Source of the DNA: a virus
Lineage: Duplodnaviria; Heunggongvirae; Uroviricota; Caudoviricetes
Reading direction: 5' to 3' (one strand)
Virus record (IMG/VR): IMGVR_UViG_2657245500_000002
Span: 1-9,668 of that record
Length of the DNA: 9,668 nt
Below the pieces are notes generated by a model that had not been told where the DNA came from, searched no databases, and worked only from the letters and a program-made list of their open reading frames with translations. The translations under genes and the position numbers were made by a program. Positions 2,339 to 6,570 of this stretch are shown piece by piece. Every line of letters begins with the position of its first letter. Position 1 is the stretch's first letter.

Positions 2339-3001
2339 TCAAATAAAACCAGCTGCCTTCCGGCGTTCGTATTCCTGTTTCAGCCGTTCAATTGGCGTTG
2401 GCCCTTGCGGGTGTTTCGCCCCTTCCAGTTGTCGTCGCACTGGCGGAACACTCATCCCGTTACCAACATGCTTTGCCCATTTCGTCAGTTGCCGTTCCGC
2501 AAGTCGTTTTAACTCACCCTGCGTCATCTGGCGCTCAATCCCTCTGGTACGCATTTCGAGGCAGATGTGGTACAGCACAGGCTGTGGCCACGGGTATTTA
2601 TCACTCCCGTCGTATCGCCAGGATTCATTGCGCCAGCGCCGGTACTCTTCCATCACTGCATCCACCGTAAGACCAAATGGATTTGCCCCACTCTCCGAAA
2701 TCAGTGCAACAAACTCAGCCAGGTCTGGGGGCCACGTTTCACCCGCCCGGCAGCGGTCCATGCACTGACGGCAGACCAGCCGGATTTGCTGTTCAGTCAT
2801 CGTGCCAATCTGGGCAATCCAGAGCTTCGAAGGTGCGGCCCCGTTCTTCTGAGTCCAGCGGTTCGAATACACCTCCCCCATAAGCTCCCACAGCTTCCAG
2901 GCCATTTCCGTTGCTGATAAATCCGTTGTCTCGTTCCCACTGTTCGCGTGCTGCCCGGATTTCCTGAACTGCCCGTGATGCCGTGCCACCTGATGCTGCA
3001 T
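2339..3001 (-). CDS. Replication protein P-like (lambda P family, DnaB helicase loader)
   Basis: ORF track. ATG at 2999-3001 with GGGGG 6 nt upstream. C-terminal two thirds align by eye with lambda P (PPDLAEFVALI vs PSPGQFVAWC; YPWPQPVLYHICLEMRTRGI...ELKRLAERQL vs YPWKSNAHYWLVTNLYQNMRANALTDAELRRKAADEL). The 5' 209 nt overlap the O-like gene out of frame; alternative internal starts at 2905, 2881 and 2800. Confidence 0.7.
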   Translation of the reverse strand: MQHQVARHHGQFRKSGQHANSGNETTDLSATEMAWKLWELMGEVYSNRWTQKNGAAPSKLWIAQIGTMTEQQIRLVCRQCMDRCRAGETWPPDLAEFVALISESGANPFGLTVDAVMEEYRRWRNESWRYDGSDKYPWPQPVLYHICLEMRTRGIERQMTQGELKRLAERQLTKWAKHVGNGMSVPPVRRQLEGAKHPQGPTPIERLKQEYERRKAAGFI

Positions 3002-3830
3002 GGCTTACCCCCTTGCTGACTGGTTTTACCTGTGTCCTGACGTGCTGCACGTGGCGGGCAAATTTCTGCTCCCACTGAACCTGTGTGAAAACCTTCCCCT
3101 CCGCCATCCAGTAATCCCGGAATGCGGCAAGCTCAGCAGGTGTAAATTCCGGCTCAGGCAGAGCCATACCCCACACTGCTGCCCGTTGTCGAAAATCCGA
3201 CGACGGCTGCCAGACAGTAGTCATCGAAAATTTCCCGATCGGTTCGCTCAGGCCGTCCAGGTATTCAGGTTCGGCTGTCTGCAACGGCGCACCATGCGAC
3301 TCACCGGTTGGAGCACTCTCGCGCATGCGCGCGTTATGTGTGGGGTTTAATTCTGTATCTGTATCTTTATCTGTCGTGACTTGTCGTGACAGATGCGTGA
3401 CACGTCGTGACTCATCGTGACAATCAGCATCATATTTCCGCAGCTTTTCGCGCTCCCGCTGCGCTCTCTTGCGCTCTGCCGGGGATTTTGCCGTTTGCGA
3501 AACGTTACCATTGTCCTCTTTCAGCACCTGACGTTTTTCCCATCCGGAAATAAGGTCACCATCCAGAACCCGCCCCTGCATTGCATGCAAAATTGAATCA
3601 ATTACGTCTTCCGTCACATCAAGCGCACTTGCTAAATCTTCCGTCGTGACATCAATGTGACCACGTAGTGACACGCCGTGACATGTCGTGACATTTCGTG
3701 ACGCACTCACCAGAAGGTGGATATACACCGCCATCACTGTTGCGATTGGCTGTCCTGAGACCCTGGCAATGGTTCGCCATTTGGGATCATTTGGCATGTC
3801 ATGCCACAATCTGAGCCAGGCATTAGCCAT
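2793..3830 (-). CDS. Replisome organizer (lambda O-like / YdaU-like replication initiator)
   Basis: ORF track 2793..3836 (GTG). ATG at 3828-3830 with GAGG 5 nt upstream preferred. N-terminus WLRLWHDMPNDPKWRTIA matches the phage replisome-organizer N-terminal domain signature; C-terminal half resembles the DnaT/YdaU-like region. The gene contains the phased repeat arrays listed below. Confidence 0.75.
   Translation of the reverse strand: MANAWLRLWHDMPNDPKWRTIARVSGQPIATVMAVYIHLLVSASRNVTTCHGVSLRGHIDVTTEDLASALDVTEDVIDSILHAMQGRVLDGDLISGWEKRQVLKEDNGNVSQTAKSPAERKRAQREREKLRKYDADCHDESRRVTHLSRQVTTDKDTDTELNPTHNARMRESAPTGESHGAPLQTAEPEYLDGLSEPIGKFSMTTVWQPSSDFRQRAAVWGMALPEPEFTPAELAAFRDYWMAEGKVFTQVQWEQKFARHVQHVRTQVKPVSKGVSHAASGGTASRAVQEIRAAREQWERDNGFISNGNGLEAVGAYGGGVFEPLDSEERGRTFEALDCPDWHDD
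3375..3421. repeat. Iteron-like array A: 5 direct copies of CGTGAC phased at 10-11 bp, inside the O-like gene
   Basis: CGTGAC at 3375, 3385, 3396, 3406, 3416 (spacing 10/11/10/10). Flanked on the low-coordinate side by a TATCT-type short repeat (3351-3372) and on the other by three GCGCTC copies (3449-3478). Encodes residues ~136-152 of the O-like protein. Confidence 0.6.
3645..3703. repeat. Iteron-like array B: 6 direct copies of (C/T/A)GTGAC phased at 10-12 bp, inside the O-like gene
   Basis: CGTGAC at 3645, TGTGAC 3656, AGTGAC 3668, CGTGAC 3678, 3688, 3698. An inverted copy (ccGTCAC) sits near 3613-3618. Encodes residues ~42-62 of the O-like protein. Confidence 0.55.
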
Positions 3831-3898: not shown

Positions 3899-4324
3899 TC
3901 AATGCACGACAACAGCATTACCAGGCTGACCACCACTGTTAGTCAGGGTGCCCCAGGCGATCGCCGCTGCGACAAAATCATCCACATCTTTCACCAGCCG
4001 ATCCCTCCGTTCGACGATCTCACGGTAATATTCAGAGCTGTGACTGCGCATACGGGCCACCAGCAGAGGCGGCATTGCCTTTTCGATCGCCGGTAACAGA
4101 GCCTGAATTTTTTCAACAGCATCAGGGGTGTCTTTATCCAGCCAACGGAAAATTTTCTGGGTATTACGAGCCAGGGCTTCCGGATGGCTGTCGTCGTACA
4201 GTTCCGGGAACGTCATTCCCAGCTCGAAATACGCTTTGGTAATTTTCGCAGCCGGTACTTTTTCGCCGTCCGGATGCGCCCAGACATTCATCGCCATGCG
4301 GATGTGTTCATGCTTGATTTTCAT
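3899..4324 (-). CDS. YdaT-like protein (CII-position regulator, toxin-annotated family)
   Basis: ORF track. ATG at 4322-4324 with AGGAG 8 nt upstream. Begins MKIKHEHI and ends VVVH, as recalled for Rac YdaT. Overlaps the cro-like stop by 17 nt. Confidence 0.7.
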   Translation of the reverse strand: MKIKHEHIRMAMNVWAHPDGEKVPAAKITKAYFELGMTFPELYDDSHPEALARNTQKIFRWLDKDTPDAVEKIQALLPAIEKAMPPLLVARMRSHSSEYYREIVERRDRLVKDVDDFVAAAIAWGTLTNSGGQPGNAVVVH

Positions 4325-4589
4325 GAATCAAGCTCCTAGAAAGTGGTTGTGTTAACGTTTTGGTATCTTCCAGCTCGGGCCAAATATTCATCCAATCAAA
4401 AGGCCTTAGTTGCTGACGTGTAACTTCACCATTACTGGCTCGCTCAATAAGGACACATAACGATGCCCCTAACACTTGACCTTTACTCAATGCTTTTCTT
4501 AGATAACCGATGCTGGTATCACACTCGCATGCAAACATACGCTGTTCATCTGACGAAAGAGAATTGAGAAATATTCTTAATTCTTCCAT
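4308..4589 (-). CDS. Cro-like HTH regulator, YdaS family
   Basis: ORF track. ATG at 4587-4589 with AAGGAG 5 nt upstream. Segment LCVLIERASNGEVTRQQLRPFDW matches the YdaS-type motif as recalled. First gene of the leftward operon, divergent from the repressor. Confidence 0.7.
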   Translation of the reverse strand: MEELRIFLNSLSSDEQRMFACECDTSIGYLRKALSKGQVLGASLCVLIERASNGEVTRQQLRPFDWMNIWPELEDTKTLTQPLSRSLIHENQA

Positions 4590-4689: not shown

Positions 4690-5109
4690 ATGGACAAATA
4701 TGAATTTAGACGACAGCAACTCATCAAAATTCGTGATGAGAAATGCGATGGTAAAGCGGTTAACGTGGCCAGAAAGATCGGGCGCGAGCCTTCTTATGTA
4801 TCAAGAATGTTGTACCCAGAGGGGAAAAAGGGAAAAAAACGGATCGCTGATGATATGGTGGAGATTATCGAAGAGTCCTTTGGGTTACCCCGGGGATGGA
4901 TGGATGGTATCGTTTCATCATCAACGAACACAGCCTCCAGTTATGAAACAAGGGTTCTAACGCCACGACAACGTATTTTTTTAGATCTCTTAGACGAACT
5001 GCCAGAAAGTGAAGCGGATAAATTATTAAAAACTCTTGAAGAGAAAAAACAGTATTACAATATGATCTACGAAGAAATCCGTAAAAAGAAAGCACAAAAC
5101 GCATCATAG
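4690..5109 (+). CDS. Prophage repressor, DicA/RacR-like HTH protein without peptidase domain
   Basis: ORF track. N-terminal HTH (GKAVNVARKIGREPSYVSRML); C-terminal LDLLDELPESEADKLL resembles the DicA ALPESEQD motif as recalled. 139 aa with no S24 peptidase domain. No SD upstream, consistent with leaderless translation. Confidence 0.75.
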   Translation: MDKYEFRRQQLIKIRDEKCDGKAVNVARKIGREPSYVSRMLYPEGKKGKKRIADDMVEIIEESFGLPRGWMDGIVSSSTNTASSYETRVLTPRQRIFLDLLDELPESEADKLLKTLEEKKQYYNMIYEEIRKKKAQNAS

Positions 5110-5152: not shown

Positions 5153-5187
5153 ACCCATAGGTATTTACTTTTTAAATACCTATGGGT
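5153..5187. terminator. Palindromic hairpin (15-bp perfect stem, 5-nt loop) after the repressor gene; probable bidirectional intrinsic terminator
   Basis: acccataggtattta (5153-5167) and taaatacctatgggt (5173-5187) are exact reverse complements. A-tract upstream (aaaaattt), T-rich tract downstream (tccttcttttcat). Lies 44 nt after the repressor stop. Confidence 0.5.
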
Positions 5188-5373
5188 ATCCTTCTTTTCA
5201 TACCAACCCACCCCGCCCCACAGAATGCAGGGCAATACTTCGAGTTACCCGGCAGTGGTCAGGGGTTAAGTAGCCAGCCCGAGGCGTATGAACATGACGG
5301 CGGGAACACTTTGTATAACAGCGCAGCAGGTTTTTGTTCCGCTCCCCCGGCGTTAAGGGGAAATGAGGTCAAC

Positions 5374-5526
5374 ATGGATACTATCGATCTTGGCAACAGC
5401 GAATCTCTGGTATGCGGCGTGTTTCCCAACCAGGACGGCACGTTTACCGCGATGACGTATACCAAAAGTAAAACGTTTAAAACCGAAGCTGGCGCGCATC
5501 GCTGGTTAGCAAGAAACTCCGACTGA
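5374..5526 (+). CDS. YdfA/YdaF-like small protein (50 aa)
   Basis: Internal ATG at 5374-5376 of ORF track 5182..5526, with GAGG 5 nt upstream; the longer listed ORF would start inside the terminator hairpin. Product MDTIDLGNSESLVCGVFPNQDGTFTAMTYTKSKTFKTEAGAHRWLARNSD resembles the ~50-aa proteins encoded next to dicA/racR (recalled). Confidence 0.6.
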   Translation: MDTIDLGNSESLVCGVFPNQDGTFTAMTYTKSKTFKTEAGAHRWLARNSD

Positions 5527-6178: not shown

Positions 6179-6512
6179 TTCACCCTCCTGAGGGTTGGTA
6201 ATTAAGGAGTTCTCCACGGGTCAGGTGGAGTGCGTGCGCCGGACACGGGTGAGCATCCGGCACTGACAGTTTACTGAAAAGGATATATCCCTGAAAAGTC
6301 AGGGCATAACACGAAAGCGCCCGGCGAAGTTAGTCTCTCTGTATAGGTCGTCATTAAATTTTCGTCGACCGCGCGCTTCCGGTTGTGGCACTCCGCGAAA
6401 TGGCGCGGCGGTAAGTATGGCGGGGTTATTCCTTCCCCGTTGAGGACACCGGGTTGTCAGGTTGACCATACGCTTAAGTGACAACCCCGCTGCAACGCCC
6501 TCTGTTATCAAT

Positions 6513-6570
6513 TTTCTGGTGACGTTTGGCGGTATCAGTTTTACTCCGTGACTGCTCTGCCACCCTTTTT
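6513..6570 (+). ncRNA. dicF: DicF small RNA (53 nt plus U-tract)
   Basis: tttctggtgacgtttggcggtatcagttttactccgtgactgctctgccaccc followed by TTTTT matches the DicF sRNA of the Qin dicB operon as recalled. It sits immediately upstream of dicB, as in Qin. Confidence 0.7.

Follow-up and report, generated by a model that had tools for sequence, protein, structure and literature searches.

Two arrays of the short word GTCACG lie inside the replication initiator gene of an E. coli prophage, and both are likely to be iterons for the phage's own initiator. In this reading, array A and the AT-rich tract next to it would form the core of an origin, and array B would be a second array bound by the initiator. 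That the initiator is the protein that binds the repeats, and that replication starts there, we infer by analogy with lambda O and with plasmid RepA_N systems. A cluster of direct repeats in phase, conservation at the DNA level and an adjacent AT-rich region, which are the features of an iteron-type origin, are all present. An origin inside the initiator gene is a classical principle. What is new here is an initiator of another fold family, iterons that are very short, occur once per turn and are read in three frames, a second array that is conserved within the sequence coding for a DNA-binding domain, and three motif classes that switch concordantly. In the searchable literature (subscription journals were outside our reach), no description of the repeats or of the origin of this initiator family was found. 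For a family of phage initiators that is widespread and unstudied, the arrays mark where the origin of replication probably lies.

The repeat arrays and the initiator gene

The window, the whole stretch of 9,668 nucleotides that was analyzed, is the Rac/lambdoid early region of an E. coli prophage and is 100% identical to strain JE86-ST05. All of the repeats are held by the initiator gene (2793..3830, minus strand; 345 aa, ATG at 3830). On the same strand are a YdaS-like cro gene (4308-4589), a YdaT/CII-like gene (3899-4324), a lambda-P-like helicase loader gene (2339..2800; Pfam Phage_lambda_P, E=1e-15; PHROG 109, "P-like helicase loader") and, after the loader, a DUF1627 gene, and a divergent repressor-like gene lies on the plus strand at 4690-5109. 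The mechanical open reading frame of the loader reaches 3001, and homologs annotate it as a 462-nt gene with an 8-nt overlap. The start of the loader overlaps the stop of the initiator (ATGA; ATGACTGA) at 2793-2800, an arrangement that suggests translational coupling. Neighboring genes of unknown function, of the type found in Rac-like prophages (DUF4752, DUF4406, DUF1627 and DUF1391), were observed at 747-1278, 1589-2323 and 5182-5526.

The word GTCACG on the coding (minus) strand reads CGTGAC on the plus strand. Array A (3375..3421, minus strand) consists of five exact copies, with plus-strand starts at 3375, 3385, 3396, 3406 and 3416 and a coding-sense spacing of 10, 10, 11 and 10 bp. Array B (3645..3702, minus strand) has six copies, spaced by 10, 10, 10, 11 and 11 bp in coding sense. 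Four of these are GTCACG (plus-strand CGTGAC starts at 3645, 3677, 3687 and 3697) and two, GTCACA and GTCACT, are degenerate, differing in the first base of the plus-strand word (TGTGAC at 3656 and AGTGAC at 3667). The GTGAC cores of array B start at 3646, 3657, 3668, 3678, 3688 and 3698, a plus-strand spacing of 11, 11, 10, 10 and 10 bp. CGTGAC was observed 10 times in the window against 4.0 expected, with at least 10 copies in 0 of 200 shuffles. The maximum number per 60 bp was five for CGTGAC and six for GTGAC, against no more than two and three, respectively, in 1000 dinucleotide-preserving shuffles.

The initial annotation had reported five and six copies of the repeat, phased at about one helical turn. 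The repeats are real and, at their 10-11 bp spacing, cluster more densely than in any shuffle, but in array B only four of the six copies are exact. An inverted copy placed near 3613-3618 was also found, as CGTCAC at 3612..3617 on the plus strand. It is GTGACG in coding sense, encodes D-V-T-E and lies 33 bp downstream of array B, and at the equivalent position of the gene (nt 193, base state) most class-1 homologs have GTGAC. Likewise, the TATCT-type repeat at 3351-3372 is present, inside the AT-rich tract (76% A+T) at 3346-3374. The third word in the same annotation, GCGCTC (coding GAGCGC), does occur three times (3450..3476, minus strand, starts at 3450, 3461 and 3471), in the part of the gene that codes for the basic helix AERKRAQRERE, but it has no signal at the DNA level. 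Synonymous codons in its Arg/Lys/Gln/Glu columns are free among homologs, with a normalized entropy of 0.81-0.98, and because of this free variation the copies were rejected as a DNA element and are taken as a by-product of coding the basic helix.

Two other candidates were set aside. Three more GTGAC copies on the plus strand at 6478-6552, within 75 bp, were judged to be chance occurrences lacking extended similarity to the repeat unit. DnaA boxes gave 36 matches with no more than two mismatches against 27.7 +/- 4.9 expected and formed no cluster at the arrays, and a DnaA-dependent origin, which was to be recognized by such a cluster near the repeats, was rejected.

The initiator has a winged-helix N-domain (aa 1-100), a basic helix (aa 117-134), a disordered linker (aa ~143-173) and a DnaT-like ssDNA-binding domain (aa ~195-268). 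The last of these was the only domain returned by a Pfam scan (aa 203-268), and the protein belongs to PF17948 (DnaT-like) based on a profile match above the curated cut-off together with the DnaT fold. NCBIfam gave a sub-threshold DnaT match and nothing else. The PHROGs label is "replication initiation protein" and the database name is "phage replisome organizer". In an AlphaFold2 model built on 75 sequences, both the N-domain, with a helix-turn-helix and a beta wing, and the DnaT-like domain were predicted with confidence. The N-domain matched no Pfam family, the lambda O family Phage_rep_O and Phage_rep_org_N included, and membership in these two families was therefore rejected. In the model, its fold seems close to that of the N-terminal domain of DnaD and of a RepA_N plasmid initiator. 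The earlier description of the protein as "O-like" thus gives way to an N-domain outside the Pfam families whose fold may be DnaD-NTD/RepA_N-like and a C-domain that is DnaT-like; in function the initiator corresponds to lambda O, to which it is not homologous. Array A encodes CH-DE-SR-R-VT-HL-SR-Q-VT, part of the disordered linker in the model, and array B encodes aa 43-63 (SASRNVTTCHGVSLRGHIDVT), which comprise the end of helix 3 and a loop of lower confidence before the N-domain helix-turn-helix.

DNA-level selection and conservation among homologs

Both arrays are kept by selection on the DNA, not on the protein. In an alignment of six E. coli/phage alleles of 83-97% identity, all five array-A cores were invariant and the spacers were variable. 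Around copy 3 of array A, a compensated +1/-1 indel pair gives Val-Thr in the window and Cys-His in three other alleles, with the DNA word kept. In array B, the alleles differ by a 21-bp in-frame indel of exactly two repeat units (six versus four copies). All three frames are used to read the hexamer, which gives CH/GH, SR or VT, and the residues that are invariant in the protein alignment within the array segments are exactly these dipeptides. In the arrays, a protein code and a DNA code cleanly overlap in three reading frames. One allele, in E. coli OkiPb01704 (locus L004, 1501-2541), is annotated as a pseudogene with an internal stop; its first array-A copy is GCCACG and the others are intact.

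Comparing synonymous sites among homologs had been proposed as a check in the initial annotation, and the outcome clearly favors DNA-level selection on both arrays. We compared 13 motif columns with 49 other conserved columns from the same 25 genes, which range from 42 to 69% G+C. The normalized codon entropy was 0.12 in the motif columns versus 0.83 in the other columns (Mann-Whitney p=3e-8). Over the motif columns, Val was GTC, Thr ACG, Gly GGT and His CAC in 24/24 genes each, and Ser was TCA in 22/24 and 25/25; in array B the counts were V=GTC, T=ACG, G=GGT and H=CAC at 24/24 each and S=TCA at 22/24. These data make it very unlikely that the arrays are protein-level repeats, or low-complexity sequence generated by slippage, that have no function as DNA. 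Both arrays do lie in low-confidence or disordered segments of the protein, where repeats can expand freely, and a two-unit indel was seen. However, the peptide is not repetitive, as one hexamer gives three different dipeptides in three frames, synonymous codons are fixed under the motif only, the frame change alters the amino acids and keeps the DNA word, and the conservation extends across genomes of 42 to 69% G+C.

A word-indexed search gave 1157 homologs of the N-domain, which is ~60% identical even in Pseudomonas, Bordetella and Chromobacterium. Among the hosts are Escherichia, Shigella, Serratia, Enterobacter, Klebsiella, Pseudomonas aeruginosa, Bordetella and Chromobacterium; isolated phages, for example Evi, Tritos and P. 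aeruginosa phi1, have homologs too. Of 5426 complete E. coli genomes, 1262 contain the gene type, at up to six places per genome and at 3-4 in several O157:H7 strains. With several such places in one O157:H7 genome, shared iterons could cause cross-activation or interference between co-resident prophages. Near-identical or close homologs were also recorded under unlikely taxa (P0050, L036, L041, L049 and L057: Staphylococcus saprophyticus, Collinsella, and Anaerolineaceae, Terracidiphilus and Solirubrobacteraceae MAGs), and these records are probably contamination or mis-binning of proteobacterial prophage DNA.

For comparison, 49 genomic loci of distant homologs were taken. In 25 of the 49, from many genera and with 42-69% G+C, GTCAC was found at gene positions 129/139/149/160 and at about 387-418; most of them also have an inverted copy at 193, and the rest of the gene has almost no copies. 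Four copies at nt 129/139/149/160 are the base state of array B, seen in ~20 genera, and the positions of the arrays are kept across Enterobacterales, Pseudomonas, Bordetella, Chromobacterium, Acidovorax, Gilvimarinus and others. Over 40 loci, neighboring copies were spaced by 10 bp 140 times, by 11 bp 36 times and by 21 bp nine times. A second array, which had been called unusual when only the window was considered, is thus a family-wide feature at a fixed position in the gene.

Two further motif classes were observed, CGAACGC in eleven further loci and GTAACG(C) in four. Each of these motifs is found in array A and in array B alike, at unchanged gene positions and with a spacing of 10 bp. 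In a Sphingomonas locus (L011) both arrays contain a duplicated 33-nt segment; those of an Erwinia locus (L019) both have overlapping copies at 5-bp spacing, followed by one inverted copy. That the two arrays evolve in concert argues that the same factor reads both, with the concordant switching of motifs partly confounded with phylogeny, as the motif classes largely follow clades. Three related iteron words combined with nearly invariant initiator domains make this family a natural series for the evolution of origin specificity.

Homologs that have no obvious arrays (L034, L039, L044, L046-48) carry at most one or two degenerate copies in the linker. Three of them, L034, L039 and L044, are without array B and have 1-2 degenerate linker copies left, which indicates that array B is dispensable in some lineages. 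From this distribution, array A appears to be the more basic element. Serratia/Pantoea homologs (L047, 3001-4188; L056, 3001-4302) were seen to combine the conserved N-domain with an unrelated C-part that has no Pfam match; they have no GTCACG-type arrays, and a cluster of CTACGTA/TACTACG words lies around gene nt 330-370.

The distance from the last B copy to the last A copy ranges from 227 to 339 bp among homologs, in steps that do not keep helical phase. A conserved helical phase between the arrays was therefore rejected, and the earlier suggestion that both lie on the same helical face is not supported. This bears on a possible, less favored explanation, that the arrays constitute one bipartite origin in which the initiator bridges or wraps the ~230-260 bp between B and A, both being needed in cis, as are ori and crr of P4. 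The arrays share orientation, motif and phasing and evolve in concert, and the DNA-level constraint on array B is as strong as that on array A, all of which such an origin would explain. On the other side are the variable phase, the homologs that lost array B and kept linker copies and the AT tract, and the fact that the tract and the module junction described below abut array A only.

A candidate origin and its proposed mode of action

In the likelier explanation, array A and its AT-rich neighbor would make up the core of the origin, with array B as a further array for the initiator to bind. Directly downstream of array A, at 3346..3374 (minus strand), there is a purine-skewed tract of 76% A+T, ACAGATAAAGATACAGATACAGAATTAAA in coding sense. 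The skew makes the coding strand rich in A/G, in a stretch of AGATAAAGATA type that always follows array A. In the 40 nt that follow array A, A+T averaged 68% over 39 loci from all motif classes, compared to a gene mean of 44%. The sequence after the last array-A copy is (A/C)(C/T)AGATAAAGATAAAGA-like in all classes, with 72% purine on the coding strand, and the consensus AGATAAAGATAAAGA is kept even in a Pseudothauera gene of 69% G+C. For Asp, the ratio GAT:GAC was 104:6 in the tract versus 294:373 elsewhere (p=2e-26), and for Lys the ratio AAA:AAG was 90:17 versus 246:243 (p=4e-11). With the place and composition to be expected of a DNA-unwinding element, the tract is a candidate for one. 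Just downstream of the tract in coding sense, at 3320-3331, is a perfect 12-bp GC palindrome, CGCGCATGCGCG, which is partly kept in E. coli alleles (CGCGCGTGCGCG, CGCACGTGCG) and absent from locus L007; its layout recalls the inverted repeat beside the AT-rich region of lambda.

We hypothesize that the winged-helix N-domain binds the copies and oligomerizes on them, the copies being placed on one face of the DNA by their spacing of one per helical turn. Array A and the adjoining AT-rich, purine-skewed AGATAAAGATA tract would be the origin core, where the duplex opens. The DnaT-like C-domain would then hold single-stranded DNA, and the P-like loader, encoded next door, would bring in host DnaB. 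Array B, which lies inside the N-domain coding region and 229 bp upstream of array A in coding sense, would be a second array with the same specificity determinant. Its role in the origin complex could be auxiliary, architectural or that of an enhancer, or it could be a control site acting through titration or handcuffing. The choice of array A as the likely origin had already been made in the initial annotation. Its position in the inter-domain linker, its AT-rich neighbor and the module junction next to it speak for that choice, and are what a lambda-style origin within an initiator gene would lead one to expect.

A purely negative role for array B is a tentative alternative. Here array B would titrate the initiator, handcuff to array A or block transcription of the initiator gene, like P1 incA and the extra iterons of RK2 and F. 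This would fit a second cluster of the same sites that lies away from the AT tract and early in the initiator transcript, and that varies in copy number (four or six in E. coli alleles, 2-6 elsewhere); in O157:H7 genomes, in which the gene type occurs at up to 4-6 places, cross-control could matter. However, a phage origin used in the lytic phase needs copy control less obviously than does a plasmid.

Our preferred reading, of iterons that belong to the initiator, agrees with the way in which these genes recombine. Megablast matches showed the C-half of the window joined to other N-domain types (DUF1376; HTH_36 type), with breakpoints at ~3349-3372. Such initiators, of the DUF1376 type in Rac-SA53 and TW08637 and of the HTH_36 type in RM11911, all share the C-half of the window. 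At the same place in the linker, immediately upstream of the junction sequence that they have in common, they have repeats of their own: TGTTCAAAC in the DUF1376 type and ACACCCAAAAACGG in the HTH_36 type. Conversely, what phage vB_EcoM-606R7 shares with the window runs from the N-domain through both arrays into the beginning of the AT tract, after which an unrelated C-terminal half follows. The type of repeat co-varies with the type of N-domain, in three classes within the family and in the other N-domains that sit on the same C-half with other repeats, a pattern partly confounded by phylogeny. The recombination junction between N-domain types (window ~3349-3372; L006, L007, L008) was observed to coincide with the boundary of array A and the AT tract. 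As judged from these alignments, the joint movement of the N-domain, the arrays and the start of the AT tract matches the behavior of an origin-recognition module.

The genes on either side also vary. Upstream of identical arrays there may be RacR/YdaS, LexA-type CI or other HTH regulators, and the downstream gene may encode a P-like loader, a DnaC/IstB-like AAA+ loader or a DnaB helicase. The arrays stay while both neighbors change, which ties the repeats to the initiator N-domain and not to the immunity system or the loader. We therefore regard it as unlikely that the repeats bind a different factor, such as a phage immunity or CII-like regulator or a host protein, or act at the level of RNA. 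Outside the array-coded loop the N-domain hardly differs from one motif class to the next, and the initiator is the presumed reader of the motif; both points leave room for another factor. Against it, the upstream regulators (RacR/YdaS, LexA-family CI and other HTH proteins) differ among loci with the same arrays, the motif travels with the N-domain across recombinant genes, and DnaA boxes are not enriched; direct repeats form no RNA hairpins.

One observation counts against the initiator as the reader of the repeats. Apart from the array-B-encoded segment and the region that follows the wing, its N-domain hardly changes among the three motif classes. This near-invariance would place the determinants of specificity in the array-B loop or the post-wing segment, or else in another factor. 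It is quite unlikely that this loop is also the reading head that sets the specificity, in which case one stretch of nucleotides would be both binding sites and code for the reader peptide; the idea comes from the N-domain differing between motif classes in that loop and the post-wing segment alone. If it were true, a change in the iterons would automatically change their reader, a self-referential coupling of origin and initiator. For the family as a whole, a large and uncharacterized one among phage and prophage initiators, the arrays provide a concrete, testable candidate origin.

Comparison with known replication systems

The initiator G38P of Bacillus phage SPP1, which is of the replisome-organizer type, has its binding repeats (oriL) within its own gene. 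The naming as a replisome organizer and the repeats inside the gene are shared with the system described here; the differences are the lack of a Pfam Phage_rep_org_N match in our initiator, and the host phylum, the repeats and the C-terminal domain.

In lambda, and also in 434, phi80 and P22 (gene 18), the ori is inside the linker-coding part of the initiator gene, where direct repeats are followed by an AT-rich, strand-asymmetric tract. In lambda the N-terminal domain and the repeats are swapped as one module, the C-terminal part pairs with the helicase loader, and a P-like loader gene comes next. The candidate origin in the window is similar in being embedded in a linker, in the order of repeats and then AT tract, in its modular exchange and in the P-like loader gene next to it. 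Ori-lambda lies in O and is bound by O (PMC6022878, PMC7466680). Unlike lambda O, the initiator here has a DnaT-like C-domain and an N-domain with no sequence relationship to that of O (no Pfam match). Its iterons are words of 6-7 bp repeated once per helical turn, in contrast to the ~19-bp inverted-repeat iterons of lambda, and it has a second array inside the region that codes for the DNA-binding domain. The RepA_N initiators (pSK41/pTZ2162 type; PDB 4pta), whose fold may be similar, are found in plasmids of Firmicutes, whereas the proteins here are from phages of Proteobacteria and have no detectable sequence similarity to them; the C-domain and the partner proteins differ as well.

The Rac module (ydaS-ydaT-ydaU-ydaV, oriJ) comes from a prophage that carries an active origin, oriJ (PMC3945230). 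The gene order and the DnaT-like C-half are the same as in the window, with 87% DNA identity to Rac-SA53 ydaU over the C-half. Rac-SA53 YdaU, the one Rac-type YdaU examined, differs in having a DUF1376-type N-domain and the linker repeats TGTTCAAAC, and the GTCACG arrays are absent from it.

Two clusters of the same initiator-binding repeat, one at the opening site and one distant, are known from P1 oriR/incA, F ori2/incC, the RK2 oriV clusters and P4 ori/crr. The arrays described here are similar in forming two separate clusters, one of which adjoins the candidate opening site. In those systems, the second cluster is intergenic or, in P4, kilobases away. Array B, in contrast, is part of the sequence that codes for the DNA-binding domain of the initiator itself, and about 230 bp separate it from array A.
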